Source of the DNA: Acidobacteriota bacterium
GTDB taxonomy: Bacteria > Acidobacteriota > UBA890 > WLXD01
Direction of reading: 5' to 3'
DNA length: 64,000 bases
Assembly (NCBI GenBank): GCA_965248845.1
Contig: CBDFKO010000002.1
Span: 2,450,369 to 2,514,368, forward strand
Below are positions 10,896 to 33,424 of the stretch, in pieces (within the stretch, counting starts at the first letter, position 1; each line of letters opens with the position of its first letter). Under the pieces are notes generated by a model. It made no database searches and had not been told where the DNA came from. It saw nothing but the letters and a program-made list of their open reading frames with translations. The position numbers and the translations under genes are program-made.

Positions 10896-11888
10896 TCAGG
10901 AGATCTCGAACGCAACCTCCGTCTTTGCCTCCTGATCGGTCACCTTATCCTTCACCGTGATCTCGAACTTGTACATCTTGCCGACCTCCAACCCCTGGAC
11001 CTGCGACAGCGGGATCGGCTGGCCGACCGTCGGGCGGCTCATGGTCTGTGGTGGCATGCGCACGATGCTGGCGCCGGTCTCGTCGAGAATCCGGTAGTTG
11101 AGCTCGATGTTGAAGGCGTGCGTGGCCGGGTCGGGCTGGGCTCCGGTGACGATGTACATCAGCTCGATCTGCGGCGTGTCCTTGGGGAACACGTGGGTCA
11201 CGTTGTCGGGCACCAGGATGGTGAGCACCATGATCCCGTCGTAGACCGTGTTCGCCAGGAAGGAGCCGGGGGCGATGCTCGGTGGCCCCACGACCATGAG
11301 CACGCTGCTCGTCCCCAAGCGTGTCAGCAGGTTGGGAACCTCGAAGCTCTCCAGTCGGGTCGCCGCCTTGCCGCTGACCGAATCGCGGACGCCCCAGACC
11401 AGCTCGTAGGTACCGGGCTGGAACGTGTCGCCGAAGCTGTAGGTCCCCGACGTCGTTTCGTCACCACCGGTCTTGGCGAGCTGGAACCCCGCGCCGATAC
11501 GGGTGATCTCGGCGCCATTCTGCAGCACGGCACCGAATAGCTCCATGTTGGCGACCTCGGTCGGCATGGCGCCCGCGGCCTCGGCCGCGGCGTCCGCAAA
11601 CGGGTCGGCGCCGAACATCACGCCTTCCTTGCTGGTGCGGAAACCAATCATGGCCAGCGTTCCGCCTTGCAGCGACGGGAAGAAATAGGTGCGCGCCGTC
11701 AGGTCGAGGTCTTCGGCCATAGTGCCGCCGAGGGCCGCCTCGAGCACCGCGCTAGCCTCGGGCGACAGAACCACGCCCGGGGCCATCGGGGCTGCGGGGG
11801 CCAGCGAGATCTCCTGCGCCGCGGCGGGTAGGGCGGCGACGACGACGAGGGCGCATAGGGCGCCCGAACGGACGGTTGATCGAAGCAT
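10896..11888 (-). CDS. Exported hypothetical protein with tandem Ig-like domains resembling the GWxTD/VWA C-terminal region
   Basis: Signal peptide (LPAAA-QE); PGTYELVWGVRDSVSGK and GKMYKFEITVKDKVTDQ motifs; AAGGAG RBS. Confidence 0.75.
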   Translation of the reverse strand: MLRSTVRSGALCALVVVAALPAAAQEISLAPAAPMAPGVVLSPEASAVLEAALGGTMAEDLDLTARTYFFPSLQGGTLAMIGFRTSKEGVMFGADPFADAAAEAAGAMPTEVANMELFGAVLQNGAEITRIGAGFQLAKTGGDETTSGTYSFGDTFQPGTYELVWGVRDSVSGKAATRLESFEVPNLLTRLGTSSVLMVVGPPSIAPGSFLANTVYDGIMVLTILVPDNVTHVFPKDTPQIELMYIVTGAQPDPATHAFNIELNYRILDETGASIVRMPPQTMSRPTVGQPIPLSQVQGLEVGKMYKFEITVKDKVTDQEAKTEVAFEIS

Positions 11889-11923
11889 CGGGGACTCCTT
11901 GTGAGGCTGGGCGACCCGTAGAG

Positions 11924-14101
11924 CTACTGCTGCGGCTCGCCTACCGGGTCCGAGATCTGCTCCAAGAGTCTGCGGATCTCCGGTTGATCGATGTCGAGCT
12001 CGAGGGAACGTTGCCAAAGCTCACGCGCCTTGCCGGATTTCCCGTCGGCGAAGTAGGCAGAGGCCAGGGCGTTGAGCACGGGCGGCTCGTCGGCACCATT
12101 GACCATCCGCGAGCGCTCATAATAGCGGATCGCGTCGTAGTGCTCTCCCGCCTCGGAATGGGCGCCCGCCAGCGCCAACATGGCCTCGACGTTTCGTGGG
12201 TCCTCCACCACCTCGGGTGTGAGCAGACCGATCAGATCCTGCCAGCGGCCCGCGTCGCGCAAAAGCAGCATTTGCAGCCGTACGATGTCGCCGTTGTCAG
12301 GCTCGCGATCCAGGGCCTCGCCCAGGTAACCGATGGCCCGTTCGTACTCGCCGAGCACCCGATACTGGCGGGCACGCTCGAGCGCGACGGTAACGTCGGT
12401 CGGCGGCGGCGCGTGCTGCGAGTTGACGAACGGAAGCGCTTGGTCCTCCTTCGGCACCACGAGCTGAATCTCACGCCGACGTGCGGCCTGCCCGTCGCCG
12501 TCGAGGCTCACCTCGACCATGTAGCGGCCGGCGCCCAGACCGCGGGTGTCGATCTGCCACACATGCGGCAACACGCCGTAGACGTCGGCGTCCTCGGGCG
12601 AAAGCGTCTGGCTCCCCTCACGAACGGTCGCGCCCGAAGGATCACGAACGACGAAACGGCCTGTCAGCGGAACCGCGAAGCCCTCGGGCAGGAGCACCTG
12701 CTGGAAGACGCGGAGCGGTGGCCCGGCGAATGCCTGGTCGACAATCGGCACCATCAGCACGTTGGCGTATTGGAACGCGTAGCGCGTCGCGTACGGATCC
12801 CAGTCGGGGACATCACGCGTGTCGGCGACGACCACAGGGCCGATCAGGCGCGGGCGCGACGGATGAATCGACGGCACGTCGAGGTCGATCACCTGCTGGC
12901 CGAAGGAGCGGGCCACCTCGTTCTCGATCATCACGGTGAGCAACTGCCTACCCGGCACCGTCGGGAACATATCGAGATAGACCAACTGCTGCCGGCTGAA
13001 GCGGCGCGCCTGTTCCTCGTCGAGCTCGCCCGACAGCGACGCGTCGAAGTTCAGCAGCACCTTGCTGTCGGGAAGCGTGACGGCACCCGAAGCACCGAAC
13101 GAGAAATAGTAGTGGTCCTCGTACTCGTCGATGTTGAGGTGCTCCCCGGACGCACTCGTGGCGATGTGCAGGAAGGGCTCGCCGTCGGTATCGATGAGGG
13201 CCGTAGCGTACGCACTCATGCGGAGCGTCTCGAAGCGCACGTCGGACTCGGTCACACCCGTGAGCACCCGGTAGGCCCAGGTCTTGTCGGGCATGATGCG
13301 CTCGGGTACCGCGGCCACGTCGCCGATCAGCATCTCGGAGCGCAGCGGCGTGATGCCGTACTCCAGTCCGGCCTCCGACGGGAAGAGGCTGAACGCGGCG
13401 CTCGCGAGGTCGTAGTCGATCTCGCGCAACAGCGAGTACAGCGCCGTGCTGTCGCCGTAGCCGGTCGGTGCGTAGGTGTCGAACCGGTAGGAGTCTTGCT
13501 GCGCTCGTTGCTCGACCTCGCGGATACCGGCCCCATTGAGCAACTTCTCGGGGCCGTCCGCCAGGGGGCTGTAGAGCCGGAAGTCCCCGGAGCCGTACCT
13601 TTGGTAAAAGACCATGTAGAAGAAGGGAGGAAGGCCGAGCTCGGTCTCGCCCGCATACATCCAGATCTCGGCCGGATACGTCACCATCTCCGACTGGTAG
13701 CGATTGCGGCTGATCGGCTCGCCGAGCAGGATCCAGATGCGACCCCGGTCGGTCTGCCAGCCGTCGAGCGATGTGCCGCGTCCGAAGAACTTGTTGACGT
13801 AGGCAAGCCGCTCGTAGTGCAGCTCGTAGTACTCGTTGCGTGGTGTGCCCGGAGTCGGGTCGCGGTTCTTCCAGAACTGCTCGATAAAGATATCGTACTT
13901 GGCATCGATGTCGAGCCGCAAGAAGACGTCGTACTCCTCCTCGGTGATGAGGTGCCCGACGCCCGCCGTGACCCACTCGCGGTACCGTTCCGGGATCTCG
14001 TCCAGGTCCCTGGCCTCGTAGATCGACGTATCTCGTTGCTGGCCCGCAACGGGAGCAGCCAGGATCAGCGCCAGGGCGCAAATGAGAAAGCGGTGTCTCA
14101 A
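11924..14101 (-). CDS. GWxTD domain protein with C-terminal TPRs
   Basis: Signal peptide; FIEQFWKNRDPTPGTPRNEY..RLAYVN..GWQTDRGRIWILLGEP signature; TPRs at the C-terminus. TTG start assumed. Confidence 0.92.
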   Translation of the reverse strand: MRHRFLICALALILAAPVAGQQRDTSIYEARDLDEIPERYREWVTAGVGHLITEEEYDVFLRLDIDAKYDIFIEQFWKNRDPTPGTPRNEYYELHYERLAYVNKFFGRGTSLDGWQTDRGRIWILLGEPISRNRYQSEMVTYPAEIWMYAGETELGLPPFFYMVFYQRYGSGDFRLYSPLADGPEKLLNGAGIREVEQRAQQDSYRFDTYAPTGYGDSTALYSLLREIDYDLASAAFSLFPSEAGLEYGITPLRSEMLIGDVAAVPERIMPDKTWAYRVLTGVTESDVRFETLRMSAYATALIDTDGEPFLHIATSASGEHLNIDEYEDHYYFSFGASGAVTLPDSKVLLNFDASLSGELDEEQARRFSRQQLVYLDMFPTVPGRQLLTVMIENEVARSFGQQVIDLDVPSIHPSRPRLIGPVVVADTRDVPDWDPYATRYAFQYANVLMVPIVDQAFAGPPLRVFQQVLLPEGFAVPLTGRFVVRDPSGATVREGSQTLSPEDADVYGVLPHVWQIDTRGLGAGRYMVEVSLDGDGQAARRREIQLVVPKEDQALPFVNSQHAPPPTDVTVALERARQYRVLGEYERAIGYLGEALDREPDNGDIVRLQMLLLRDAGRWQDLIGLLTPEVVEDPRNVEAMLALAGAHSEAGEHYDAIRYYERSRMVNGADEPPVLNALASAYFADGKSGKARELWQRSLELDIDQPEIRRLLEQISDPVGEPQQ

Positions 14102-14193: not shown

Positions 14194-15987
14194 TTGAGAT
14201 TATACGCTGGCTGGCCCCCGAAACGCTCGTCTGTGCGCCCGCTCACGAGAGGGCTGGCTTGCGCCCTGATGCAAGGTCTCGCGCTCTGTGCTGGGACTGC
14301 CGGCGCGGGTCAGAGTGCTGATGACGCCACGTCGATCCGGTTCGAAGACGTGCGCGAGGCGATGGGCGTCGACTGGGCCCACTTCGCCGGCCGCAGCGCC
14401 GCCAAGGAGATGCCGGAAACCATGGGCGGCGGCATCGCCTGGCTCGACTATGACAACGACGGTCGCTACGACCTGTATTTCGTCGACAGCGGCACCCTGG
14501 CCGGTACCACCCCGCTGACCGAGGCGCCCGCCCGGGCCGGAGAGAACCGGCTGTTCCGCAACGCGCCGTCCGGGCGCTTCGAAGATGCGTCCCAGGCCGG
14601 TGCCGGTGACCCCGGCTACGGGATGGGCGTAGCGGTGGGCGACTACGACTCCGACGGCTGGAGCGATCTGTTCGTGACCAACTACGGTGCCAACGCCCTG
14701 TACCGCAACAACGGCGACGGGACCTTCGGCGACGTGACCGCCGAGACGGGGCTGGCCGGCGATTCCTGGAGCACGAGCGCGGCCTGGGGCGACCTCGACG
14801 CCGACGGGTTTGCCGAGCTGTACGTGGCCAACTACGTGAGCTACGAGGTGCCGAGCGTCAACAAGTGCACCGACGTAAACGACCGGTTGATCTACTGCAC
14901 GCCGGATCTGTTCGACGGGGTTGTCGACGAGCTGTACCAGAACCTCGGGGGTCGCGCCTTCGAGAACGTCACCGAGGCGGCCGGCACAGACAACGCCGCC
15001 GACGGCAAGGGCCTCGGTGTGGTGATCGTAGATATCGACGCCGACGCCCGGCCCGACATCTACGTCGCCAACGACGCTACCCGCAACTTCTTTTACGTGA
15101 ACCGCGGGGAGCTGCGCTTCGAGGACCAGGGCGTTATCTCGGGGACCGCCGTGAGCGCCGAAGGCTATCCTCAGTCGGGAATGGGCGTCGACATCGCCGA
15201 CATCGACGGCGATGGGAGCGTCGAGATCGGAGTGACCAACTTCGAGCGCCAGGCGGTGAACCTCTACATGGCCATGGTTCCGGGCCTGTTCCAGGATCAG
15301 ACCTTCGCCGTCGGCCTGGGCGAGCCCACGGTGGGGACGCTGGGCTTCGGCCTGGCCTTTGTCGACGCCGACGGGGATGGTGACCTGGACGTGGTGATCG
15401 CCAACGGCCACCTGGACTACGACGAGACCTCGCCCCAGGCGAACCAGGTGTTCCGCAACCTGGCTGCCGAGCGGCGCGCGGCAGGCGGACTCGATGGCAC
15501 CTCCGGCCTGCTTCGCGAGCTACCCGCCGGCGCCGGTGACCCGATGCAAGCTCGTCGGGTCTCGCGCGGGCTGGCCGCGGGTGATCTGGAGGGCGACGGC
15601 TGGCCCGACCTGGTGATTACCAACGTGCAGGAGCGGCCCACGATTCTGCGCAACACGGCGCCGCGCGCTGACTCTCGCCTGGTGCTGCGCCTACGGGGCC
15701 GCCAGGCCAATCGCGACGGCTACGGAGCCCACGTCGAGGTAACTCCGCTCGTGCACGACGGCACCACGGCAGTGCAATATCACGACGTGAAGAGCAGCAC
15801 CTCATACCTGTCGCAAGGCAGCAACGAGCTCTACCTCGGGATCGGGCAGGCCGATCGGGCCCGGGTCGTCGTGCGCTGGCCCGACGGTACGACCGAGGAT
15901 CTGGGCGAGCTCGAGGCCGGGTGGCTGATCCTCGTTCGCGAGGGCATGGGCGTTGTGGCCCGCCGGCCGCTGGAGGACTCGGCTTGA
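14194..15987 (+). CDS. CRTAC1 family (FG-GAP repeats + ASPIC/UnbV) protein
   Basis: MPETMGGGIAWLDYDNDGRYDLY, repeated DxDxDG loops, NRDGYGA..SYLSQ..VRWPDG. True start may be ~14233-14269. Confidence 0.92.
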   Translation: MRLYAGWPPKRSSVRPLTRGLACALMQGLALCAGTAGAGQSADDATSIRFEDVREAMGVDWAHFAGRSAAKEMPETMGGGIAWLDYDNDGRYDLYFVDSGTLAGTTPLTEAPARAGENRLFRNAPSGRFEDASQAGAGDPGYGMGVAVGDYDSDGWSDLFVTNYGANALYRNNGDGTFGDVTAETGLAGDSWSTSAAWGDLDADGFAELYVANYVSYEVPSVNKCTDVNDRLIYCTPDLFDGVVDELYQNLGGRAFENVTEAAGTDNAADGKGLGVVIVDIDADARPDIYVANDATRNFFYVNRGELRFEDQGVISGTAVSAEGYPQSGMGVDIADIDGDGSVEIGVTNFERQAVNLYMAMVPGLFQDQTFAVGLGEPTVGTLGFGLAFVDADGDGDLDVVIANGHLDYDETSPQANQVFRNLAAERRAAGGLDGTSGLLRELPAGAGDPMQARRVSRGLAAGDLEGDGWPDLVITNVQERPTILRNTAPRADSRLVLRLRGRQANRDGYGAHVEVTPLVHDGTTAVQYHDVKSSTSYLSQGSNELYLGIGQADRARVVVRWPDGTTEDLGELEAGWLILVREGMGVVARRPLEDSA

Positions 15988-17552
15988 GGGGATCGATACG
16001 GCTCCTGGTGCTGGCGTGGGCCTTGGTGCTCACCGCACCGGCCCATGCCCAACAGGACGACACAACCGAAACCGCCCAGGCGCGCTTCATCGCGGCGCTG
16101 CGGCTTGTCGAGCAGAGCCGCTTCGAGGAGGCCCTGACCGAGGCGACGGCGGGCGCCGAGCTGGCCCCGGACGACCCCGACGGTCTCAACCTTCTGGGGC
16201 GGATCTACGAGCAACTCGAGCGCGACCAGGAGGCCGAAGACGCCTACACCCGGGCCATGCGAGCCGACCCGCAGTGGAGCCCGCCTTTCATGAACCTGGG
16301 GACCTTGTATCTGAGGCAGTCGAAATTCGCCGCGGCCGTAGCGCCCCTGCAGCAGGCCACGACGCTGGACCCCGACAGCGCCCAGACGCACGCGTTGTAC
16401 GGCGTGGCGCTGCGCAACTCGAATCGAGTCGCCGATGCCGTCGGTGCATTCGAGCGCGCTTGGGAGCTGGCACCCGGCGACGGCCGGCTCGGTACCGATG
16501 TAGCGATCACTCGTCGCATGGCTGGCGACCTCGCCGGGGCGATCGGCGCCGCGGAGCAGGCGGTGGAACAGCTACCCGGCGATCCGCGGCCGCTCGGCCT
16601 GCTCGGTCAGCTACTTGTGGAGAGTACCCGGGCGGAGGATCTGATTCGTGCGCCGGCCGTCTACCGAAAGGCCATCGCGCTAGCCCCCGAGAACCCCGGC
16701 TTCTGGGCAGGGCTCGCCGCTGCCTACACCGAGCTGGCCCTGCGAGCCGATGCCGAACAGGCGTTAGGGCGGGCGATGGAGCTCGGCGCGAATACCCCCG
16801 ACCTGCGGTTTCGTCTGGGGCAGACGCTGGCGCGTCAGGCGAAGTGGGCCGCGGCGCTCGAGCAGTACGACTCGGTTCTCACACCCCTGCCCGACTCCCC
16901 CGTGGTGCAGCAGTATCGGGGCGAGGCCCTGTTCAATCTGAACCGTGCCGACGAGGCACTCGTCGCTTTCGAGCGCGCCATGGAACTGTCGCCCGGCGGG
17001 ATCGACCCGATCCTGTCGGCGGTGCAGATTCTCTTCGTCAAGGGGCAGCTCGACAGGGTCGAGGAGTACCTGGGTCGCGTGGCGATCACCGATGCGCGCG
17101 AACAGGCGCGGCTCGATCTCGAAACCTCACGGCTGCGGTCGCGCCAGGGGCGCGACCAGGAAGCACTGGAGGCGGTGGAGCGCCTGCTCGCGGTCGACCC
17201 CACGAACGTCGACGGCCTGTATCTGAAAGGACAGTCGCTGCTCAAGCTCGGCCGCATCGAGGAAGGCCGCGCGGCGCTCGCCGAGTACCAGACCCACTTC
17301 ACCGCCGAACGCGGCCAAGAGGTCGAGGCGTTGCGCTTCGGTCTCATCGGCCGCGCGCAGGTCTACACACTCCGCAGCCGCGTCTACATCGCCGAGGGGC
17401 GCTACGACGACGCGCTGGAGCAGCTCGTGGCGGCGACCGAGCTGGCCAGCGACAGCGCCGAGGTCTGGAGGCTCCTGGCCGAGCTGCACGACCTGCGCGG
17501 TGACTCGGAAGCGGCGGCCGCGGCCCGCGAGCGGGCTCGCGCGCTGCAGTAG
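15984..17552 (+). CDS. Exported TPR protein
   Basis: Signal peptide (PAHA-QQ), multiple TPR repeats; TTGA overlap with the CRTAC1 gene. Confidence 0.88.
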   Translation: MRGSIRLLVLAWALVLTAPAHAQQDDTTETAQARFIAALRLVEQSRFEEALTEATAGAELAPDDPDGLNLLGRIYEQLERDQEAEDAYTRAMRADPQWSPPFMNLGTLYLRQSKFAAAVAPLQQATTLDPDSAQTHALYGVALRNSNRVADAVGAFERAWELAPGDGRLGTDVAITRRMAGDLAGAIGAAEQAVEQLPGDPRPLGLLGQLLVESTRAEDLIRAPAVYRKAIALAPENPGFWAGLAAAYTELALRADAEQALGRAMELGANTPDLRFRLGQTLARQAKWAAALEQYDSVLTPLPDSPVVQQYRGEALFNLNRADEALVAFERAMELSPGGIDPILSAVQILFVKGQLDRVEEYLGRVAITDAREQARLDLETSRLRSRQGRDQEALEAVERLLAVDPTNVDGLYLKGQSLLKLGRIEEGRAALAEYQTHFTAERGQEVEALRFGLIGRAQVYTLRSRVYIAEGRYDDALEQLVAATELASDSAEVWRLLAELHDLRGDSEAAAAARERARALQ

Positions 17553-17567
17553 CGGCCCGCTGTCGTG

Positions 17568-19689: not shown

Positions 19690-20688
19690 TCAACTGATCG
19701 AGTTGAGGAAGTCCTGGGCCAGCGCCGCGTTCTGTGAGCCCGGGTCGAGCTCGATTACCTTCTCGAGATGCGACTTGGCCTCGTCCATCTTGCCCTGCTG
19801 GATGAGGCACAGCCCCACCTGCATGTGGGCATCCGCGAAGCCCGGGTTTCGCTGAATCGCCAGCTCGTAGTATTTCTGGGCCTCAGCCGACTGACCCTGA
19901 TCGAACAAGAGCGAGCCGATGTTGTAGAAGACGATCGGGTCCCGGATGTCGGCCGGATCGACGCGCTCGAGATGCGCCATGGCACCGTCGAGATCCCGCT
20001 GCATCATCGCGACCTTGGCCAGGCCGAGGTGGGCCTCGGTGCTCTCGGGATCACCGCCCACCGCCGTCTCGAAATGCGACGTAGCCCTGTCGTGATCGCC
20101 GGCCGCGTAAGCAGCGTTGCCGGCGTTGATGCTCACCAGGTACAGCAGCTCGAGCGGGTCCTCCTTGGCACCTTCCTCGGCGATGATGGCTTCGAACGCG
20201 GCCAGCGCACCGGGGTAATCGCCAGCGTCGTAGAGTGCATTACCGGCCTTCATCTTCTCGCCGAGCTCGCCGCTGAACAGCGCCATCCCGCCGGGCACGG
20301 CGTCGCCCGCGGCGCTCGCATCCCCCGGCTGCAGGATCGTCTCGACCGGCTTGTTCTGGGTGTACTCCAATATGTTCGCGCTCTGAGCGCCGGGGAGGAA
20401 ACCCTCCGCTGAGATATCGATGTTCCAGGTACCTCGACCCATGGCGCCCTTGAGCCAGCGGCCGTCATTCTTCGTAATGAGTGTCCAGCTGTCGCCAGTC
20501 GCCACATAGGTCAGCACGACGGTGGCCCCGGGGATCGGATTGTGCTCGTGGTCGAACACCTGGCCCTGCAGACGACCGCGGCCCTGGGCGATGTTCTGCG
20601 CCGCGGCCGTAGTCGCGATAGCCAAGATGAGCGCGGCGACGGTAACGCCCAGAAGGGAGCTCCCGGCACGTTGCCTTGCCACTGCCAT
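19690..20688 (-). CDS. Exported carboxypeptidase-regulatory-like (Cna-B) domain + TPR protein
   Basis: Signal peptide; GRLQGQVFD..PIPGATV..GTWNIDISAEGF; TPRs. Confidence 0.88.
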   Translation of the reverse strand: MAVARQRAGSSLLGVTVAALILAIATTAAAQNIAQGRGRLQGQVFDHEHNPIPGATVVLTYVATGDSWTLITKNDGRWLKGAMGRGTWNIDISAEGFLPGAQSANILEYTQNKPVETILQPGDASAAGDAVPGGMALFSGELGEKMKAGNALYDAGDYPGALAAFEAIIAEEGAKEDPLELLYLVSINAGNAAYAAGDHDRATSHFETAVGGDPESTEAHLGLAKVAMMQRDLDGAMAHLERVDPADIRDPIVFYNIGSLLFDQGQSAEAQKYYELAIQRNPGFADAHMQVGLCLIQQGKMDEAKSHLEKVIELDPGSQNAALAQDFLNSIS

Positions 20689-20987: not shown

Positions 20988-21029
20988 CAAACAACGAAAG
21001 GGCCCCCGAAGCCGAAGCTCCGAGGGCCC
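20988..21029 (-). terminator. Rho-independent terminator of the TonB-dependent receptor gene
   Basis: GGGCCC-CCGAAGC-CGAA-GCTCCGA-GGGCCC hairpin followed on the minus strand by TTTCGTTGTTT. Confidence 0.75.
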
Positions 21030-23901: not shown

Positions 23902-24061
23902 TTTGCCCTCCTCGGCAGTGCAACCCGAGACCCTCAAATGGGGACGTCAACGCCGACCGGGTCCCTTGTGATCGGCGCGGATAATCCGGGGACACGCTGG
24001 TCCCACCCGGTATGAATGCAACTCGCATACCAGACCGAATCCAAGGAGTCGGATTTCTGTC

Positions 24062-24082
24062 ACATTCGTGTCAACGAAATGT
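24062..24082. promoter_or_regulatory. Candidate operator upstream of the TonB-dependent receptor
   Basis: ACATTCGT-GTCA-ACGAAATGT imperfect inverted repeat in an AT-rich leader. Confidence 0.4.
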
Positions 24083-26060: not shown

Positions 26061-27941
26061 GTGAGAGCCTCGATCCCAGCCGCCCTGCTCGCCGTGCTCC
26101 TGGCCAGCGCCACCATCGCCGCTGCACGCCAAACGAGGGTGAACGTGCCCAATCCCGACATCGGCGAGACCACGCTGGCCGCCCGCCGTGACGCCCAGCT
26201 CGCCGCCGCGGCCGACCTCGGTGTCTTTCACGACTTCGGCTTCACCGATCGCATCCTCGAGACCGGTATCACCTTCCGCCATCGCGTGGTCGAGGACTCG
26301 GGCAAGAGCTACAAGGCGGCCCACTACGACCACGGCACCGCCCTGGCCGTCGCCGACGTCGACGGGGACGATGTGCTCGACCTTTACTTCGTCACGCAGA
26401 TCGGCTCCAACGAGCTGTGGCGAGGTACCGGTGACGCCCGCTTCGAGAACATCACCGAGCGCGCCGGCGTCGGTTTGGCCGACCGCATCGGTGTCGGTGC
26501 TTCCTTTGCCGACATCGACAACGATGGCGACGCTGACCTGTTCGCCACTTCGGTGCGTGGCGGCAACGCCCTGTTCGAGAACGACGGCACCGGCCGCTTC
26601 CTCGACATCACCGAGCGCGCCGGGGTCGCCTATTCGGGCCACTCCTCGGGCGCCGTCTTCCTCGACTACGACGGCGACGGCCGCCTCGATCTGTTCGTCA
26701 CCAACGTCGGTAGTTACACCCTCGAGGAGCAGGGTGAGGGAGGCTTCTGGCGGGCCCGCGACGACGCTTTCCAGGGCCACCTGCTGGCCGAGCGTCACGA
26801 GCGCTCGATCCTCTATCGCAACCTGGACGACAACCGCTTCCGCAACGTCTCGAGCGAAGTGGGCCTGGTCGATAACTCGTGGAGTGGTGACGCCAGCCTG
26901 GTCGACTTCAACGCCGACGGTTTCCCCGACCTGTACGTGCTGTCGATGCAGGGCGACGACCACTACTACGAGAACCGCGACGGGCGGGCCTTCAGCGCGC
27001 GGACCGCAGCTCTGTTCCCCAAGACCCCCTGGGGCGCCATGGGCATCAAGTCGTTCGACTACGACAACGACGGCGACCTGGACCTGTTCCTCACCGACAT
27101 GCACTCCGACATGAGCGCCGAGGTGGGTCCAGACCAGGAGTTCGAGAAGCCCATCGTCGAGAATGCGGAGCGCTTCTACCAAGACAGCTCGAACAACCTG
27201 CTCGGCAATGCGTTCTATCGCAACGACGGCGGCAGCTTCACCGAGATCTCCGACGCGATCGGGCTCGAGAACTACTGGCCCTGGGGCACCAGCGTCGGCG
27301 ATATCAACGCCGACGGCTGGCAGGACGTGTTCATCGCCTCGTCGATGAACTATCCGTTCCGCTACGGCATCAACTCGATGATGCTCAACGATGCCGGTGA
27401 GAGATTCGCGCAGGCCGAGTTCGTGCTCGGCATCGAGCCCCGCCGCGATGGCGCCGTGCGCACCGAGTGGTTCAACCTCAACTGCGGCGGCGCCGACGCC
27501 GCCCACGAGATCTGCCAGACCTACTCGGGTCCGCTAACGGTCATGGGGACGCTTGGAACCCGCACCTCGGCGATCGTCGATATCGACGGCGACGGCGACC
27601 TCGATATCGTCACCGGAGAGTTCGGCTCCGCGCCCCAGTTCCTGGTGAGCAATCTGAGCGAGCGGCGGACCGTTAGCTGGCTCGGAGTCGAGCTCCAGGG
27701 TGACTTCTCGAACCGCGCCGGCCTGGGCGCCATCGTCGCGGTCCAGGCCGGCGGTAGCACCTACACGCGCATCAACGACGGCAAGACCGGCTACCTGTCG
27801 CAGAGCCGCCTGCCCCTCTACTTCGGGCTCGGCAATGCCGCCAGCGTCGAGAGGGTGACGGTGCGCTGGCCCTCGGGGAGCGAGCAGACTGTGCAAGGAC
27901 CGCTCGAGCCCAACCGCACGATCCATATCGAGGAACAGTAG
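26061..27941 (+). CDS. CRTAC1 family (FG-GAP + ASPIC/UnbV) protein
   Basis: Signal peptide; many DxDxDG loops; NRAGLGA..GYLSQSRLPLYFGLG..VRWPSG. Confidence 0.93.
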   Translation: MRASIPAALLAVLLASATIAAARQTRVNVPNPDIGETTLAARRDAQLAAAADLGVFHDFGFTDRILETGITFRHRVVEDSGKSYKAAHYDHGTALAVADVDGDDVLDLYFVTQIGSNELWRGTGDARFENITERAGVGLADRIGVGASFADIDNDGDADLFATSVRGGNALFENDGTGRFLDITERAGVAYSGHSSGAVFLDYDGDGRLDLFVTNVGSYTLEEQGEGGFWRARDDAFQGHLLAERHERSILYRNLDDNRFRNVSSEVGLVDNSWSGDASLVDFNADGFPDLYVLSMQGDDHYYENRDGRAFSARTAALFPKTPWGAMGIKSFDYDNDGDLDLFLTDMHSDMSAEVGPDQEFEKPIVENAERFYQDSSNNLLGNAFYRNDGGSFTEISDAIGLENYWPWGTSVGDINADGWQDVFIASSMNYPFRYGINSMMLNDAGERFAQAEFVLGIEPRRDGAVRTEWFNLNCGGADAAHEICQTYSGPLTVMGTLGTRTSAIVDIDGDGDLDIVTGEFGSAPQFLVSNLSERRTVSWLGVELQGDFSNRAGLGAIVAVQAGGSTYTRINDGKTGYLSQSRLPLYFGLGNAASVERVTVRWPSGSEQTVQGPLEPNRTIHIEEQ

Positions 27942-27976
27942 CCGGGGCCGTCAGAGCCGTCGTTGGCCACCCGCTC

Positions 27977-29340
27977 GGATGTGCCCCGAATGTCGTGGAA
28001 ATTGGATGAGCGCAGCCTCCTGGGCAACGGCTGATCGTATCGGTTAGGCGGCCTGCTCGTCCGGGCCGCGAGTGATCTGGGCAAGGTGACGATAGCCGTC
28101 GACGCGGCGCATGCGGATCTGGCCGAAGGCGACCAAGCCCCACAGCAACGTCACGCCAGCTGCCTCGGTGCAGAACGAACCCTGGGTCTTGGTACGGCGC
28201 CGGAACTCCCGGTTCAGGTTCTCGAGCGGGTTGGTCGTTCGCAACGTCTTCCACATCGGCCTGGGGAACTCGTAGAACGTCAGCAGGCTCAGGCCCGCTT
28301 CCTCCAGGCTTCGGGCAACGGCCGGCACGAGCCTGGACCATTTGCGCACGAAGGCGCTGTACGCGGCCCGAGCCTCGTTGCCGTTGTCGGCGCGGACGAT
28401 GGCATGCCAATCGCGCCTCATTTCATCGCGCGCATGCACGGGGCAGTGATCGCGAAGGTTGCTCCACTTGTGCTGGATGCATCGCTGCACCTGCGACCGC
28501 GGCCATGCCTCGGTCGCCTTCGCCAGCCCCTTGTGACCGTCGGCGATCAGCAGCTGAGGCGATCGCAGCCCCCGGTGCACGAGCGAGTCGATCAACCCTC
28601 GCCAGTGAACTTCCGCTTCCGAGGCCGCCAACCGCAACGCCACCAACACCTTCTGGCCGTCGGCTTTGACTCCGAGCACCGCCAACACCGGCACCGAGAC
28701 CACGCGCCGCGCCAACCTGACCTTCAGGTGAAACCCGTCCAGATACAGAATCGGATACCGCTCACCGGACAGCTCTCGCTCGCTCCAGCTCGCGAAGTAC
28801 GTCTTGAGCCGCCCCACCACCCGCGAGACCGTGCTCTTGGACAGGTGCGCTCTCCCGAGCAACGGAGACAACGCCTTGCGGATCCGCCGCGTGTTGGCGC
28901 CCGCCAGGTACGCTCCCAGGATCGCCTCGTCCACCTGTCGTGCTCGCCGCGCGTACCGTGGCAGGATCGCGCTCCGGAACTCCCGGGTGCCGCCGTCTTC
29001 GTCCACGACGCGACCGCGCGGCACGTCCAACTCCTGGAGTCCCTGCGCCGTCGTCACCCGCCGGCTTTGGGTGCCGTTGCGGTAGCCTCGGCGCGCCGAC
29101 CGTTGCGCTCGTATCGCGCGCTCCCCAGAGCCTCCGTGAGCTCCTCCTGGAGCGTGATCTGGATCGCCTCACGGATCCTCGTCCGCAGCAACATCTGTAC
29201 GTCCCGTCGAAACTCCACGACCTCGTTGTCGTGCGTGCTAACCTGCTTCACGGCGTAACCTCCTGCCGCTCGTGGCGGCTCTGAGTTTTGCTACTCGGAG
29301 GTTACGCCTTTCTAATTTCCACAGGACTCGGGACGAATCC
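27977..29340 (-). mobile_element. IS256 family insertion sequence (1364 bp)
   Basis: 30-bp imperfect TIRs (GGATGTGCCCCGAATGTCGTGGAAATTGGA vs GGATTCGTCCCGAGTCCTGTGGAAATTAGA). 8-bp target duplication ACCCGCTC at 27969-27976 and 29341-29348. Confidence 0.93.
28044..29251 (-). CDS. IS256 transposase (one frameshift near 29095)
   Basis: LGSARYER..RGYRNG split across frames; YLDG, IADGHKGL, QRCIQH, LRTTNPLENLNREFRRRTK. Confidence 0.9.
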
Positions 29341-29394
29341 ACCCGCTCCCGCGGCACGCGACTACTCGTCCGGGCGCGGTACTGTTGAGGGACC

Positions 29395-31224
29395 ATGAAA
29401 CGACGCGGTCGAGAATCGAGGTCCGGGCCGTCACGGTACTCGTGTGCGGGAGCGCTAGTCGCGCTGGCGATGCTCCTGGCGACTTCGGGCATCGCAACCG
29501 CCCAGACGCGTGCCTTCGGCGAGACCATGAATCGCGGCTTCGCCGCCATCGAGGCCGAGGATGCGGCCGCTGCCGCCGCCGCCTTCCAAGCCGCTCTGCT
29601 GATCACGCCCGGTCATCCGGCGGCCCTCGCCTGGCTGGGCAACGCACGGCGGCTCGAGGGTGACCTCAGCACCGCCCTGCGGAGGCTCGACGAGGCCGTG
29701 ACCGCGGCACCCGACTATTACCCGGCACGGTTGTTCCGCGCCCAGGCCCGGGAGCAGGCCGGCCATGTCGGCGAGGCGATCGATGACCTGCGCGCCGCCG
29801 TACAGCTCGACTCCGCCGACCCCACTGCCCGCGCCAGCTTGGCACGTCTGCTCATGCGCACGGGTCGGCTCGAGGAGGCTGCGGCGCAGGCCGATGAGCT
29901 CATCCGGCTGGCGCCCGACGTCTTCGCCGCCCATTATCTGCTGGCTACCGTGCAGCAGCAGCGCCAGCGGCATTCGGCCGCACTGACCGCGTTCCTGGAG
30001 GCCGACGCACTGCAGCCCGGAGAGCGAACCGTGCTGTTCGGTATCGCCGATGCCCTGGCCGGGCTGGGCCGTGTCGAGGACGCGTTCGGCGCCCTGGCCC
30101 GGCTGGTTGAGACCCATCCCGACTACCCTTACGGCTGGCGCCGCTACGCCGAGCTGCTCGCCGCGAATCGCTTCGAGCTCGATGCACGCATTGCGGCAGC
30201 GGACTTCTATACCCGCGCTCTCGAGCTACAGCCGGGTGAGCTCGATGTCGTTCGTCCGCTCGCAGCCCTGTATCTGGAGCTGCGACTCTTTCAGCGGGTG
30301 CAACGGCTGGTCGAGGCGGCCCCGCGCGCCGAAAGCGATGCCGAGATCCAGTTCCTCTTGGGCAAGGCACAGGCGCAGATGCGTGCTCACGAGTCGGCGT
30401 TGAGAACCTACGACCGGGCCTTCGAGCTATCGCCGCGCGCCGACATCTTGGCCTACCGTGCTGCCTCCGAGCGCAACCTGGATCGACCCGACGCGGCGCT
30501 GGCGACGCTGCGCAGCGCGGTGGAGCTCGATCCCGGATACGGTCCGGCCTGGGTCGATGTGGGTGATCTGCTGCTGCACCAGGACCAACTCGCCGAGGCC
30601 ACCACCGCCCTGCAGAACGCGGTGGGCCTTCTCCCCGAACATGGCCAGGCCCACTACCTGCTCGGCCAGGCCCTGCGACGGTCCGGTGACCCCGCCGGGG
30701 CGGTTCGAGAGCTGGAGCGCGCCGCCGAGCTCGACGAGACAAACGCTAACGCCTTCTACAACCTGGGTCTGGCCTACCGCGAGAACGGCGATGCCGAGCG
30801 CAGCCGGGTCGCGCTGGAGCGCTTCCAGGAGCTCGAGCGCACGTCCGGACGGGGTGCCGAGCAGGAGCGCAGAACCCGCGCCCGTGGCCTGCTTCGAACC
30901 GGGCTGGTGCAGTACCGGCTGGGCGACAATGCCGACGCCGCCGGCACCTTGCGACAGGCCACCGAGCTCGCGCCCGATGCTGAGCCGGCCTGGTACTACC
31001 TCGGGCTGTCGCTCGCCAACGAGCGCGATATCGCCGGGGCCATCGAGGCACTCGAACGAGCGGTCAGCTTGGCACCCGACCGCCTCGGCAGCCACGACGC
31101 CCTCGCCACGCTGTACGAGCAGGTGGGACGCGCCGACGATGCTGCCGCTGCCCGCGCGCGTGCCGCACAGCTACGCCAGCAGGCCCAGCAGCCGGTTAGC
31201 GCTCGGTCACGGCCGCGCCGGTGA
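29395..31224 (+). CDS. Exported TPR protein
   Basis: Signal peptide (IATA-QT) followed by many TPR repeats. Confidence 0.88.
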   Translation: MKRRGRESRSGPSRYSCAGALVALAMLLATSGIATAQTRAFGETMNRGFAAIEAEDAAAAAAAFQAALLITPGHPAALAWLGNARRLEGDLSTALRRLDEAVTAAPDYYPARLFRAQAREQAGHVGEAIDDLRAAVQLDSADPTARASLARLLMRTGRLEEAAAQADELIRLAPDVFAAHYLLATVQQQRQRHSAALTAFLEADALQPGERTVLFGIADALAGLGRVEDAFGALARLVETHPDYPYGWRRYAELLAANRFELDARIAAADFYTRALELQPGELDVVRPLAALYLELRLFQRVQRLVEAAPRAESDAEIQFLLGKAQAQMRAHESALRTYDRAFELSPRADILAYRAASERNLDRPDAALATLRSAVELDPGYGPAWVDVGDLLLHQDQLAEATTALQNAVGLLPEHGQAHYLLGQALRRSGDPAGAVRELERAAELDETNANAFYNLGLAYRENGDAERSRVALERFQELERTSGRGAEQERRTRARGLLRTGLVQYRLGDNADAAGTLRQATELAPDAEPAWYYLGLSLANERDIAGAIEALERAVSLAPDRLGSHDALATLYEQVGRADDAAAARARAAQLRQQAQQPVSARSRPRR

Positions 31225-33424
31225 TCAGGAACGGCATGATTTGCTTCACCCGCTGACCGGCGATCTCGTCGGCCAAGTCGATCTCGAGCAGGTAGGCGCC
31301 CTCGCGCAGATCCTCAGGCAACTGCGCCTGCACCAACATGCTGGTGGCGTTGCTGTCGGCGTCGAAGTCGCGCGCCAGCAGCTCGATGCCGGCGACCTCG
31401 TGGATCTGCCCCAGCTCGTCGATGGCCCGCGCGTCGATCTTCGTGTGCACCTTGCCGGTGAACGGGTGGCGCGCCAGGTTGTGGGCCACGAGCATGAAGT
31501 AGCAGGAGCCACCCGGCTGGGTAAGCGTGTAGACCTGCGGCGTGACTTCCTGCTCGCCGATGACGAAGGGGTAGCCGATCGGCCCCCCGGCCCGGTGCTC
31601 GGGTGGCGCTGCCGCGTCGAAGCCCCGAATCAGCAGACCCGGATGGTCCCGATCGACCGGCACCGGCCCGCTGACCGTGACCGCCGTCGGGTTGCTCCAG
31701 CGCGGTACCTCGAGCGTCTCGGTGCGCGTGCTCAGCAGACCCACCTCCGCATCGCGAACCAGGACGCGGACCTCGTAGGTTCCCTCCGTGGCCCACAGCA
31801 GATCGTAGTAGCGGAAGGGCAATCCGGACAGCCGTCCGCCCATCCGTAGCATGTCCAGGCTGACACGACGGCTGAACAGGTCCCGCATCTGTCCCTTGTC
31901 GTCCATGATGTAGCCGAGGATGTCGAGCTCGGCGCGGTCGTCGGCGCGGGTCGCTGCGATCTGCTCGAGCTGCTGATAGGGAACCTCGACGACCACGGCG
32001 ACCCGGCTGACTCCTCGGTCACCGACGAAGGGCGTGACCCGCACGTCGAAGGTCAGGTTCTCCTCGTCGAGCCCCTTGGTGATGAACTCCGACAGCTGCA
32101 GCTGGCGCTGCGCGTCGTCCATGTCCGTGTAATCGGGGGGCGGCGCCAGGCGCTGCGGCGCCGCCACGATCCGCGCGCCCTGCCGCAGGACCTCGACGTC
32201 GATGTCGACCACAGGAGGATCGTCTTTCTCCTTGCGGTAGGCGATCACGTAGTACTGGCTCGTATTCTCGGCCAGGTCGACCAATGCGGGCAACAGCTCG
32301 TTCTGATTCCACGACATGGTGCCGTTGGTGCCGTTGGCCAGGTAGGAGAGGCCCTGCCTGCCCGAGGTGTGGGTCTTGAAGGTGTCGTCGAACGCCTGGG
32401 AGTCCAGGCCCGACACGTCGAATGCGTGAAGGACAGTGTCGGAGGCCAACAGGTTCTCGAGCGCATTGGAGAGGCTCTGGCGCAGGTCGGCGCTCCCGAA
32501 GCGCTCCTCCGAGTTGACCGCGAAGGCCAGACCATCCTCGATCAGCTGCGTATCCTCCGCCAGCTCGTCGAGGCTCTTGCCGGAGAGCACCTTGTCGTCG
32601 AAGCCGGCGGAAAAGAGCAGCACGTGCTTGCGCCCGCGCGTCGCCTTGAGCATGTCGCCGAGCGCTTCGAGCTGGTCGGCGTAGTTGACCACCTCGTCGC
32701 GGTAGCGGCGAAAGTCGGCGGCGTAGGTATCGGCGAGCTCGGCAAACAGCGTCGCCTCGATGAGGGTCTGGAGCTGGGCGCGCGTCGTCTGGACGTCCTG
32801 CGCGAAGGCCACGTTCGACGTCTCCATCTCGAGCATGTCGGACAGCGGTGCCACCGCGAAGCCGGCCGGATCGACGATGAAGCCCGACCGGTTCAGACCG
32901 AACCCCTGGAGAGCGCTGATCACCTGCGACCGGTCGCCGGTGAAGGGCGAAACCAGTTGCAACCCGCCGGCAGTGCTATAGGTGGCGACGCCGATCAGGT
33001 CGTTCGGGTGGGTGTGCCGCTGTACGAACTCCAGCGCCGACTCCTGGGCTCGGAGCAGACCGCGCTTGGTCGAGAAGCTGAAGTCGAAGAAAAGGAGGAA
33101 CTGGCGCCAGCCGGCGGCCGGGATGAAGTCGTCGATATCCGGATCCGGGTTGGCTCGCAGGTCGATCTCGTAGACCGTCGTGATGTCACGCACGCGCCCG
33201 TCGACACGCAGGATGAAGTCGTCCCCGGTCAGCCGCGGGATATGGAAGCCGCGCGAGTCGGCGATCGCCACCTGCATCTGCACGACCTCGACGGTGGTGC
33301 GGAACTGCGGTCGATCCTGTGCCGCCGCGGAGCCGCCGGCGGCCGTGGTCACGGCCACCAGGGCGATCGCGGCGGTCGCTCCGCGCGCACCTCGGCTGAT
33401 GATCCTGCGCTCTCGATCGTGCAC
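31196..33424 (-). CDS. Acidobacterial VWFA-related domain protein with C-terminal Ig-like domains
   Basis: QDRPQFRTTVEVVQMQV..GFHIPRLTGDDF; FFDFSFS (MIDAS DxSxS); GRKHVLLFSAGF; LANGTNG..YYVIAY. GTG start after GGAGG. Confidence 0.9.
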   Translation of the reverse strand: MHDRERRIISRGARGATAAIALVAVTTAAGGSAAAQDRPQFRTTVEVVQMQVAIADSRGFHIPRLTGDDFILRVDGRVRDITTVYEIDLRANPDPDIDDFIPAAGWRQFLLFFDFSFSTKRGLLRAQESALEFVQRHTHPNDLIGVATYSTAGGLQLVSPFTGDRSQVISALQGFGLNRSGFIVDPAGFAVAPLSDMLEMETSNVAFAQDVQTTRAQLQTLIEATLFAELADTYAADFRRYRDEVVNYADQLEALGDMLKATRGRKHVLLFSAGFDDKVLSGKSLDELAEDTQLIEDGLAFAVNSEERFGSADLRQSLSNALENLLASDTVLHAFDVSGLDSQAFDDTFKTHTSGRQGLSYLANGTNGTMSWNQNELLPALVDLAENTSQYYVIAYRKEKDDPPVVDIDVEVLRQGARIVAAPQRLAPPPDYTDMDDAQRQLQLSEFITKGLDEENLTFDVRVTPFVGDRGVSRVAVVVEVPYQQLEQIAATRADDRAELDILGYIMDDKGQMRDLFSRRVSLDMLRMGGRLSGLPFRYYDLLWATEGTYEVRVLVRDAEVGLLSTRTETLEVPRWSNPTAVTVSGPVPVDRDHPGLLIRGFDAAAPPEHRAGGPIGYPFVIGEQEVTPQVYTLTQPGGSCYFMLVAHNLARHPFTGKVHTKIDARAIDELGQIHEVAGIELLARDFDADSNATSMLVQAQLPEDLREGAYLLEIDLADEIAGQRVKQIMPFLITGAAVTER

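Follow-up and report, generated by a model that had tools for sequence, protein, structure and literature searches.

The analyses presented here indicate that the 23-kb region at positions 10896-33424 of the window (the whole 64,000-nucleotide stretch of acidobacterial DNA that was analysed) is a mosaic, in which additions are interleaved with an ancient core module, rather than one 11-gene machine. The core is a real, ancient module that consists of the GWxTD-long protein g02, the body-only protein g01, the enzyme g05, the CarboxypepD_reg-TPR protein g06 and the TonB-dependent transporter (TBDT) g07, sometimes joined by the VWA protein g12. This GWxTD-TonB module is widespread across Acidobacteriota and is kept next to a TBDT. 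As to its function, the best explanation that we can infer, and to which we give about an even chance, is a TonB-coupled, SusD-independent uptake system for capture and processing, with import as the most likely direction.

Gene content and organization of the region

Gene calls, family profiles and thresholds were home-made, with calling based on GC3. Pfam, NCBIfam, the gene calls and translation together bore out the inventory of the original prediction (11 exported genes and an IS256 element), and every gene described earlier was present:

g01, 10896-11888, minus strand: exported protein of 330 aa without a Pfam or NCBIfam match
g02, 11924-14101, minus strand: GWxTD (TIGR04514) and TPR
g03, 14194-15987, plus strand: FG-GAP/ASPIC, CRTAC1-like propeller; start codon uncertain
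g04, 15984-17552, plus strand: exported TPR protein, paired with g03
g05, 17568-19676, minus strand: Sulfatase-family domain and TPR
g06, 19690-20682, minus strand: CarboxypepD_reg and TPR
20916-24075, no strand: 3160-bp segment containing g07 alone, with a second copy elsewhere in the genome
g07, 21085-23937, minus strand: CarboxypepD_reg and PF25183 barrel, a TBDT
g08, 24351-25883, minus strand: exported DUF3179 protein with a C-T-L-C (CxxC) motif
g09, 26061-27941, plus strand: FG-GAP/ASPIC, second CRTAC1-like propeller
IS256 element, 27977-29340, minus strand: transposase ORF at 28044-29057, between g09 and g11
g11, 29395-31224, plus strand: exported TPR protein
g12, 31196-33424, minus strand: TIGR03436 acidobact_VWFA protein with a D-F-S-F-S MIDAS motif

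The five TPR proteins (g02, g04, g05, g06 and g11), two FG-GAP/ASPIC propellers, MIDAS VWA protein, GWxTD protein, CxxC DUF3179 protein, alkaline-phosphatase-superfamily enzyme and Oar-like receptor named previously were all found. Also as claimed, the 12 ORFs yielded no match to SusD, to a glycoside hydrolase or to any cytoplasmic catabolic family (Pfam, E ≤ 0.01); glycoside hydrolases, lyases and esterases had no Pfam match in these ORFs, and with neither SusD nor a carbohydrate-active enzyme the region is not a classical PUL. A hydrophobic, signal-peptide-like N-terminus was judged by eye to be present in 11 of the 11 proteins. By the same visual judgement, the module proteins carry plain signal peptides without a lipobox or an obvious lipoprotein signal, which counts against capture at the cell surface.

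The region contains at least six transcription units in mixed orientation and is thus not one operon. Because collinearity with family-level relatives extends over the whole window including its flanks, synteny at the family level is uninformative.

Lineage-specific additions

The two CRTAC1-TPR pairs, the DUF3179 gene and the IS256 element are later lineage-specific additions. Both propellers belong to the CRTAC1/ASPIC-UnbV type, with FG-GAP and UnbV_ASPIC matches above cut-off in g03 (FG-GAP_3 E 1.1e-39, UnbV_ASPIC E 4.8e-13) and g09 (2.9e-41 and 2.6e-15, respectively), and pairs of a CRTAC1 gene followed by a TPR gene recur elsewhere in the genome. In two relatives (G006 and G010), g09 is missing between the DUF3179 and VWA genes. 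The DUF3179 gene itself, g08 (PF11376, E 6.5e-72), is syntenic only within the family.

The IS256 element (1364 bp; NF033543, 268.8 bits against a cut-off of 150) has 18 further full-length copies (at least 1364 bp) in the genome with at least 99.4% identity, in addition to truncated copies. The target duplication of IS256 elements is 8-9 bp long, and an 8-bp direct repeat, ACCCGCTC, flanks the element (27969-27976 and 29341-29348), as is typical of the family. Once the element and the repeat are subtracted, the spacer between g09 and g11 is reduced to approximately 81 nt; the two genes formed a pair until the IS inserted between them.

The GWxTD protein and a body shared with other proteins

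The GWxTD-long protein g02 is the module anchor. Its family membership is clear from matches to TIGR04514 (98.4 bits, cut-off 28) and PF20094 (33.5 bits, cut-off 26.9), and across 89 homologues the G-W-x-T-D residues show little or no variation. A signal peptide is followed by a GWxTD head of 270 aa, beta-sandwiches and a C-terminal TPR region. The AF2 model of g02 has a pLDDT of 92.1, and that of the head folded alone 91.9. When the head model was compared with 48,161 solved PDB chains, no structural match was obtained (best Z 3.9); the predicted head is therefore an orphan fold, unlike any solved structure. The head family is large, with 12,460 representatives at 50% identity (E ≤ 0.001), and no mention of the domain was found in the literature searched. 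With a large family, a confident model, no structural relative and no such mention, the head is an attractive candidate for structural and functional work.

Downstream of g02, at a distance of 35 nt, lies g01, with a terminator-like hairpin (10847-10874) behind it. This protein matched neither a GWxTD model nor any other in Pfam or NCBIfam and is thus not a GWxTD family member. A profile built from g01 nevertheless scored 389-437 bits against the GWxTD-short proteins (566-612 aa), over their C-terminal 300 aa, and also matched the middle of the GWxTD-long proteins and the C-terminus of g12. Hence, g01 is a headless copy of the GWxTD-short beta-sandwich body and is to be counted as a core module member.

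The same body recurs in g12, which is an acidobact_VWFA protein (TIGR03436, 105.7 bits, cut-off 81.25) with the D-F-S-F-S MIDAS motif and a weak Pfam VWA_2 match (18.3 bits). As g01 and g12 match each other in BLASTP (E 1e-4) and the IgC body profile matches g12 with 32 bits over profile positions 17-297 of 298, the C-terminal body of g12 is homologous to g01, the same beta-sandwich body bearing another head. This protein is only sometimes a member of the module, and its own paralogues score higher against it (516 bits) than the GWxTD-linked copies do (316 bits). The common body with swapped heads in GWxTD and acidobacterial VWA proteins unites two "unknown" families in one system.

The enzyme and the TonB-dependent transporter

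In g05, a core module member, a sulfatase domain (PF00884, E 6.8e-34, 118 bits; PF01663, E 2e-12 over 70 residues) is fused to TPR. Its T-L-P-S-H motif aligns with C-S-P-S-R, the C-x-P-x-R motif of the S1 sulfatase 6pt4, and since it replaces C/S-x-P-x-R, a formylglycine (S1) sulfatase is ruled out. NPPs carry a T-x-P-x-H motif, and g05 matches the NPP structure 7n1s with an E value of 5e-5. The motif and the Asp/His metal ligands are kept in 36-37 of 37 gap-free homologues (Thr 36/37, motif His 37/37). The Thr-type active site is intact in sequence, and g05 is a putative periplasmic enzyme of the alkaline-phosphatase superfamily for which NPP-like chemistry would be consistent with the conserved residues.

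Upstream of g05 by 13 nt lies g06 (PF13620, E 1.5e-9, and TPR), which like g07 is a core module member. The transporter g07 matches CarboxypepD_reg (PF13620, E 3.3e-16, 59.8 bits) and PF25183 (E 6.6e-11, 41.8 bits) above cut-off and Plug weakly, below cut-off (16.8 bits); by this domain architecture, an N-terminal CarboxypepD_reg and a PF25183-type barrel, it can be classed as an Oar-type TBDT. It is apparently monocistronic, with a terminator-like hairpin at 21000-21029. The surrounding segment (20916-24075) is 99.84% identical to C2:288655-291814, a copy that adjoins IS elements. As four relatives keep g07 orthologues at the same place, the copy in the window is the original.

Judging by bit scores, the GWxTD-linked partners represent specific orthologous subfamilies, to which g05, g06 and g07 are closer than to paralogues within their own genome. 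The g05 sulfatase domain scored 278-352 bits against GWxTD-linked copies of other classes, while none of its own paralogues exceeded 157 bits; g06 scored 100-150 bits against GWxTD-linked copies and 94 bits against its best own paralogue; and g07 scored 300-483 bits against GWxTD-linked TBDTs of other classes, its best intact own paralogue reaching 264 bits. Expansion of these families in this genome is modest, with 2 GWxTD-long, 7 TBDT and 3 CarboxypepD_reg-TPR copies.

Linkage around GWxTD-long genes across Acidobacteriota

A GWxTD-long profile search yielded a broad set of 78 loci (L035-L112; L034 was left out as a family-level relative), 74 of which had a GWxTD-long anchor by our in-house profile. 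These loci are the best 80 by score of at least 573, mostly from Aminicenantes, and come from related genomes, i.e., they are not independent samples. The neighbours of GWxTD-long at the 74 loci included TBDTs (29), CarboxypepD_reg-TPR (22), GWxTD-short (19) and the Sulfatase-type enzyme (14). Of the 35 full-length loci, which span 18 kb or more, 18 had a TBDT, 10 had CarboxypepD_reg-TPR and 8 had the enzyme; 17 of the 35 had no TBDT within 10 kb.

Gene density fell steeply with distance from the anchor. In bins of 0-2.5, 2.5-5, 5-7.5 and 7.5-10 kb, it was 65.6, 37.5, 4.5 and 11.1 genes per Mb for TBDTs, 65.6, 3.7, 0 and 11.1 for GWxTD-short, 53.1, 11.2, 9.0 and 5.6 for CarboxypepD_reg-TPR, and 40.6, 18.7, 9.0 and 5.6 for the enzyme, so that the density of core partners drops about tenfold past 5 kb. 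The genome-wide density of PF25183 in five of these genomes is at most about 4-12 per Mb. CarboxypepD_reg-TPR lies on the anchor's strand in 22 of 23 copies; for the TBDT this holds in 19 of 34 cases, and co-transcription with the anchor is thus not the rule. Core genes adjoin GWxTD-long, with the gene order shuffled, in Aminicenantes, Vicinamibacteria, Terriglobales/Acidobacteriaceae, Bryobacteraceae and other Acidobacteriota. Likewise, 10 loci of order- and phylum-level relatives that are not of the ExbBD type contain TBDT (6), enzyme (4), CarboxypepD_reg-TPR (4) and VWA (3) genes in differing orders.

Synteny beyond what family expansion would give therefore exists for the core, as cross-class linkage, distance decay, orthology and low copy numbers, and does not extend to CRTAC1 (5/74 loci, without distance decay around GWxTD-long), VWA (4/74) or DUF3179 (0/74 broad loci); g01-like genes were found at 3 of the 74. 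Of the single 11-protein machine originally proposed, g01, g02, g05, g06 and g07 remain, the VWA protein is occasional, and the CRTAC1-TPR pairs and DUF3179 fall away. For the core, an organization around the receptor is plausible.

A related arrangement occurs in a paralogous cluster shared by this genome, four family-level relatives and six order-level genomes, with the order GWxTD-long, GWxTD-short, CarboxypepD_reg-TPR, transglutaminase-TPR, Big_7-VWA, ExbB, ExbD, ExbD, TonB and TPR (TonB set: PF01618, PF02472 twice, PF03544 and TPR); no TBDT receptor is present in it. This genome has three sites where a TBDT and a GWxTD gene are at most 10 kb apart, i.e., the window, a locus with a second intact TBDT (L113) and one with a broken TBDT (L114), and no TonB-system gene lies near four of its eight GWxTD loci.

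Possible function of the module

In the uptake system that we favour, GWxTD and VWA heads on beta-sandwich stalks would catch a substrate, either large or scarce, at the envelope, and the TBDT would carry it over the outer membrane, with a TonB-ExbBD energiser working with the module. The TPR proteins may dock the module parts in the periplasm, and the Thr-nucleophile enzyme could cut a phosphoester-type bond in the cargo. The GWxTD loci without a TBDT or a TonB-system gene nearby, the mixed strands and the weak VWA linkage are observations that count against an uptake role.

A less likely alternative, though the strongest of the rivals, is export or surface assembly, in which an Oar-type TBDT moves adhesin- or scaffold-like GWxTD and VWA proteins out, TPR proteins serve as periplasmic chaperones or adaptors, and modification of the cargo or of a surface polymer falls to the g05-type enzyme. 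Core linkage and partner orthology support it as well as they support uptake. Plain signal peptides without a lipobox suit soluble cargo, and the intact MIDAS of g12 is typical of adhesive VWA domains. The g02 body gave structural matches to RbmA, a biofilm scaffold of tandem domains (4kkq, Foldseek E 5.5e-7), and to transglutaminase C-terminal barrels, but these matches are generic beta-sandwiches with low TM-scores (0.14). A precedent is Oar of Myxococcus xanthus, a TBDT reported to be needed for secretion of the protease PopC (PMC6434023). However, only one TBDT has been reported as a protein exporter, import being the rule, and the module has no protease or other typical secreted enzyme. 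In its boldest form, which we regard as doubtful, a hitherto unrecognised, phylum-wide outer-membrane machine would use a dedicated Oar-type TBDT and ExbBD-TonB to export or display at the surface stalked proteins with a common body and interchangeable GWxTD or VWA heads, the GWxTD head having a novel fold and a novel function in binding or catalysis. If this were true, TBDT-dependent protein secretion or display would be a general mechanism and no Myxococcus curiosity.

Somewhat more unlikely still is an envelope-integrity or stress scaffold, comparable to Tol-Pal with CpoB or the Bat VWA/TPR operon, in which TPR, VWA and beta-sandwich proteins together span the periplasm and use TonB/ExbBD energy for upkeep or remodelling of the outer membrane or peptidoglycan, and the TBDT is a mere frequent neighbour. 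The receptor-free paralogous cluster, which joins GWxTD to ExbB-ExbD-ExbD-TonB-TPR, a transglutaminase-like TPR protein and Big_7-VWA, points this way, as does the absence of a TBDT from 17 of the 35 full-length loci. The weak matches of g06 and g11 to tol-pal YbgF, BatC and BamD-type TPR models are, however, far below the family cut-offs, and MoxR ATPase, DUF58, TolA, TolB and Pal were not found in the ORFs scanned in the window region and the paralogous cluster. The linked TBDT, moreover, forms an orthologous subfamily of its own, which speaks for its being part of the function.

Finally, it is highly improbable that the region is no system at all, with exported proteins of families widespread in the phylum lined up by chance and held by inherited gene order. 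Family-level collinearity of window and flanks, CRTAC1 without decay, absent DUF3179 and rare VWA linkage, several transcription units in mixed orientation, and a genome actively rearranging through IS256 and TBDT duplication all agree with this account, and it stands for g03, g04, g08, g09 and g11. For the core genes it is contradicted by their cross-class linkage in shuffled orders, the roughly tenfold distance decay, the low copy numbers in this genome and the partners, which resemble copies in other classes more than their own paralogues.

In soil, Acidobacteriota rank among the most abundant bacteria. To our knowledge, they have many Oar-type TBDTs yet lack SusD, the partner that accounts for such receptors in Bacteroidota. 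A conserved partner set for one receptor subfamily offers a testable handle on macromolecule capture or display in this phylum.

Comparison with known systems

Like the Bat (aerotolerance) operons, the region clusters exported or membrane VWA proteins with TPR proteins. It has a TBDT and an alkaline-phosphatase-superfamily enzyme instead of MoxR/DUF58, and the BatC-model matches of g06 and g11 are weak (27.6 and 33.4 bits, cut-off 175). A Bat/MoxR-VWA operon was rejected, as the MoxR AAA+ ATPase and DUF58 are absent from the ORFs scanned in the window region and the paralogous cluster.

The SusC/SusD PULs of Bacteroidota also place a TBDT with an N-terminal CarboxypepD_reg-like domain beside exported binding or processing proteins and an enzyme, in modular loci of which a genome can have more than one, much as GWxTD lies beside a TBDT at three places here. 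In contrast, neither SusD nor a glycoside hydrolase nor a hybrid two-component/ECF regulator occurs in the 12 ORFs of the region, the partner set consists of GWxTD, VWA and TPR proteins whose signal peptides are ordinary, and the enzyme is a Thr-nucleophile alkaline-phosphatase-superfamily protein. A Bacteroidota-type PUL was rejected, there being neither a SusD-like gene nor a carbohydrate-active enzyme in these ORFs.

With M. xanthus Oar, g07 shares the domain architecture of a CarboxypepD_reg N-terminus and a large barrel (PF13620, PF25183). The region has no PopC-like protease, and the abstract of PMC6434023 describes the Oar system without GWxTD, VWA or TPR partners.

In comparison with ExbB-ExbD-ExbD-TonB-TPR energiser clusters, the TonB-related part of the window is a receptor and not an energiser. 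We know of no TonB operon that includes GWxTD, transglutaminase and VWA genes upstream of the energiser, and the paralogous GWxTD cluster ends in exactly such an energiser set.

Gene content and organization of the cluster

The original prediction placed 11 genes for apparently exported proteins and one IS256 element between 10896 and 33424. The Pfam and NCBIfam matches, GC3-based gene calls and direct translation behind our gene map agree with this reading, with the DUF3179 gene (g08) set by hand and signal peptides read by eye. The reported lack of SusD, glycoside hydrolase and cytoplasmic catabolic families also held, as none was matched in this interval.

Features of the cluster
g01, 10896-11888, minus strand, no family match in Pfam or NCBIfam
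g02, 11924-14101, minus strand, GWxTD and TPR (GWxTD-long)
g03, 14194-15987, plus strand, FG-GAP/ASPIC (CRTAC1)
g04, 15984-17552, plus strand, TPR
g05, 17568-19676, minus strand, Sulfatase family and TPR
g06, 19690-20682, minus strand, CarboxypepD_reg and TPR
g07, 21085-23937, minus strand, CarboxypepD_reg and PF25183 barrel, TonB-dependent transporter (TBDT)
g08, 24351-25883, minus strand, DUF3179 with CxxC
g09, 26061-27941, plus strand, FG-GAP/ASPIC (CRTAC1)
IS256, 27977-29340
g11, 29395-31224, plus strand, TPR
g12, 31196-33424, minus strand, TIGR03436 VWA with D-x-S-x-S MIDAS motif

Gene orientation, together with terminator-like hairpins 3' of g01 and of g07, shows that the cluster is divided among several transcription units and is not a single operon. 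As called, the 3' ends of the convergent g11 and g12 share 29 nt (31196-31224). The pairs of a CRTAC1 and a TPR gene are separate two-gene units, which recur elsewhere in the genome.

The predicted alkaline-phosphatase-superfamily enzyme is g05, which aligns to S1 sulfatases with Thr at the formylglycine Cys position and His at the Arg position. Both this motif and the metal-binding Asp and His residues recur in 36-37 of 37 gap-free homologues, and g05 is therefore not a formylglycine sulfatase. A Thr nucleophile instead suggests phosphoryl transfer, the chemistry of nucleotide pyrophosphatases (NPP), which carry a T-x-P-x-H motif; g05 also has a short PF01663 match and a weak match to 7n1s.

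Insertion sequences and duplications

The genome, from the phylum Acidobacteriota, comprises 5.1 Mb in two contigs (C1 and C2) and is rich in active IS elements. A search of sequencing runs listed four matches, all from one study and none of RNA. The IS256 between g09 and g11 (1364 bp, bounded on both sides by an 8-bp direct repeat) is a true insertion, and 18 other full-length copies share at least 99.4% identity, besides truncated ones; a second IS256 subfamily is about 83% identical. Without the element, g09 and g11 would lie about 81 nt apart, resembling the g03/g04 pair. At C2:121774-127911, paralogues of CRTAC1b (786 bits) and of VWA (516 bits) are convergent with two small ORFs between them, an arrangement that mirrors g09 to g12 and suggests an old segmental duplication.

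A 3160-bp segment holding the TBDT gene alone (20916-24075) is 99.84% identical to C2:288655-291814 (6656-9815 of the fetched locus), where the second copy is flanked by IS-type transposase and Ser/Thr kinase genes. One of these kinase genes looks split (9952-10623 and 10635-12593 of that locus). The near-identical duplicate and the lower G + C content had raised the possibility of a recent TBDT insertion in the window, which is ruled out by an orthologue at the same position in four same-family relatives; the window copy is thus the original. Two adjoining ORF fragments at C1:461463-462736, 64-65% identical to g07, may be what is left of a third member copy of the subfamily.

Gene order within the family

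The order from g01 to g07 is kept in same-family genomes of other genera, two of which also keep g08 and g12; one same-family relative lacks g06. The flanks (1-10800 and 33500-64000) are largely collinear with two same-family relatives (G006 and G010), most flanking proteins sharing 57-78% identity and two only 36-41%. As these flanking housekeeping genes are equally collinear, synteny at this level shows inherited order only and is uninformative. Moreover, g09, g11 and a CitMHS gene (33596-35365) are missing from G006 and G010, the sole two genomes reaching that far, and are therefore not fixed parts of the cluster.

Linkage around GWxTD-long genes across Acidobacteriota

A profile of the GWxTD-long protein was built, and 79 loci with flanks of up to 10 kb were fetched from other species. 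One locus, from a family-level relative, was left out, and the anchor was found in 74 of the remaining 78 loci, which by hand tally come from 68 assemblies. By record title most are Aminicenantes, with Vicinamibacteria, Terriglobales/Acidobacteriaceae, Bryobacteraceae and others also present. Many metagenome-assembled genomes (L036-L038, L041, L046, L050 and others) are titled 'uncultured Eubacteriales' or 'Clostridia' and have Aminicenantes-like neighbourhoods; these titles may not be the true taxonomy. Six-frame ORFs were annotated with profiles grown from the window proteins, TPR parts removed; the profiles, thresholds and gene calls behind the counts are all home-made.

Partners near GWxTD-long (all 74 anchored loci; the 35 loci of at least 18 kb). 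Loci are from the best 80 of at least 573, one class dominates and related genomes are non-independent samples; contig ends truncate many loci, which makes the counts lower bounds.
TBDT: 29/74; 18/35
CarboxypepD_reg-TPR: 22/74; 10/35
GWxTD-short: 19/74; 6/35
Sulfatase-type enzyme: 14/74; 8/35
CRTAC1: 5/74; 5/35
VWA: 4/74; 2/35
g01-like: 3/74; 2/35
DUF3179: 0/74; 0/35

Partner density in genes per Mb at 0-2.5, 2.5-5, 5-7.5 and 7.5-10 kb from the anchor
TBDT: 65.6; 37.5; 4.5; 11.1
GWxTD-short: 65.6; 3.7; 0; 11.1
CarboxypepD_reg-TPR: 53.1; 11.2; 9.0; 5.6
Enzyme: 40.6; 18.7; 9.0; 5.6
CRTAC1: 6.2; 0; 9.0; 5.6

A third profile round over the loci yielded no additional VWA, enzyme, CRTAC1 or DUF3179 genes. 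One of the loci (L105), with a TBDT followed by GWxTD-long, is from the cultured acidobacterium Paracidobacterium acidisoli. Such linkage might reflect the chance meeting of expanded families. However, the density of the core partners drops steeply away from the anchor, the genome-wide density of PF25183 matches is no more than 4-12 per Mb in five of the genomes sampled, and the families are small in the window's genome (GWxTD-long 2, TBDT 7, CarboxypepD_reg-TPR 3, VWA 5 and CRTAC1 8 copies); together, these observations leave the core unexplained by chance. Thus, of the predicted synteny beyond family expansion, the part concerning the core stands on linkage, decay and low copy number, and the core in GWxTD-long neighbourhoods is real, while CRTAC1 and DUF3179 fall away, DUF3179 being linked at family level only, and VWA joins the module only occasionally.

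Ten order- or phylum-level GWxTD-long loci without the ExbB-ExbD arrangement contain the partners (TBDT 6/10, enzyme 4/10, CarboxypepD_reg-TPR 4/10, VWA 3/10) in varying gene orders and orientations; one (L020) carries two TBDT genes, CarboxypepD_reg-TPR, VWA and GWxTD-long in that order on one strand.

The partners belong to specific subfamilies. For the g05 enzyme domain, GWxTD-linked copies from other classes give 278-352 bits at 39-51% identity, whereas no paralogue in its own genome exceeds 157 bits; the corresponding scores are 300-483 versus 264 bits (best intact paralogue) for g07 and 100-150 versus 94 bits (best paralogue) for g06. These cross-class scores indicate that the TBDT, the enzyme and CarboxypepD_reg-TPR have long travelled with GWxTD-long. 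The exception is g12, for which a paralogue in the same genome (516 bits) scores higher than a linked copy (316 bits).

The GWxTD head and a shared body

The predicted model of g02 is confident (pLDDT 92.1, 89-sequence alignment) but matched only TPR and tandem beta-sandwich folds, among them RbmA and the barrels at the C-terminus of transglutaminases, and the head was therefore folded alone (269 residues, pLDDT 91.9). Foldseek against the PDB gave nothing better than E 0.32, and VIA-align a best Z of 3.9, with 0 of 48,161 chains reaching Z 5, although the lack of a match is not proof of a new fold; the ESM Atlas held no usable named match for the head with PF20094 excluded. The head family numbers 12,460 representatives at E <= 0.001, with 1,460 remaining at E <= 1e-30, and was not found in 14 control genomes. 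Its invariant residues (Glu56, Arg80, Asp81, Asn89, Glu90, Thr117, Asp118, Glu145 and three Trp) mark a candidate site. Our literature search found no mention of GWxTD, TIGR04514, PF20094, TIGR03436 or 'VWFA-related Acidobacterial', and by title and abstract nothing relevant linking Acidobacteria TonB-dependent, carboxypeptidase regulatory-like and tetratricopeptide proteins.

A profile built on g01 covers the last ~300 residues of GWxTD-short proteins of 566-612 aa (389-437 bits). A further round extended the matches to the central part of many GWxTD-long proteins, with E down to 3e-12, and to the C-terminal end of g12 and its orthologues, where it scored 32 bits across positions 17-297 of 298. 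These matches make g01 a headless member of a body family bearing GWxTD or VWA heads, with an optional TPR tail. The matching part of g02 was modelled as beta-sandwiches. BLASTP of g01 against g12 reached E 1e-4 across a common strand motif; g01 against g02 and g02 against g12 were not significant, the shared body being visible by profiles only. The only ESM Atlas clusters that g01 resembles are unnamed, 350 aa long and mostly from Aminicenantota. Complex prediction of g01 with g02 residues 24-565, both as alignments, scored 0.00 in two runs without controls, which speaks neither for nor against an interface.

A proposed TonB-coupled envelope module

A second link to TonB is provided by a paralogous cluster at C2:3466000-3485999, which encodes, in order, GWxTD-long, two CRTAC1, a 617-aa GWxTD-short, transglutaminase-like-TPR, Big_7-VWA, ExbB, two ExbD, TonB and TPR proteins. 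Conserved across the order, clusters of this type also occur in four family-level relatives and, on one strand, without CRTAC1 and with a CarboxypepD_reg-TPR gene, in six order-level genomes. A third GWxTD-TBDT association in the genome lies at C1:570232-577349, where an Oar-type TBDT gene shares its strand with genes for a DDE transposase, a TPR protein of 470 aa and a GWxTD-short protein of 532 aa. At a further locus, another GWxTD-short gene has a broken TBDT at a distance of 5 kb; no TonB-system gene neighbours the remaining four GWxTD loci of the genome.

Taken together, g01, g02, g05, g06, g07 and sometimes g12 read as a TonB-coupled envelope module. Since TBDTs normally import, the most economical interpretation is that the module would import a captured, esterified substrate. 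Export or surface display would be a bolder alternative, with the reported need for Oar in PopC secretion (PMC6434023) as the precedent; a third reading would be a scaffold resembling Tol-Pal or Bat.
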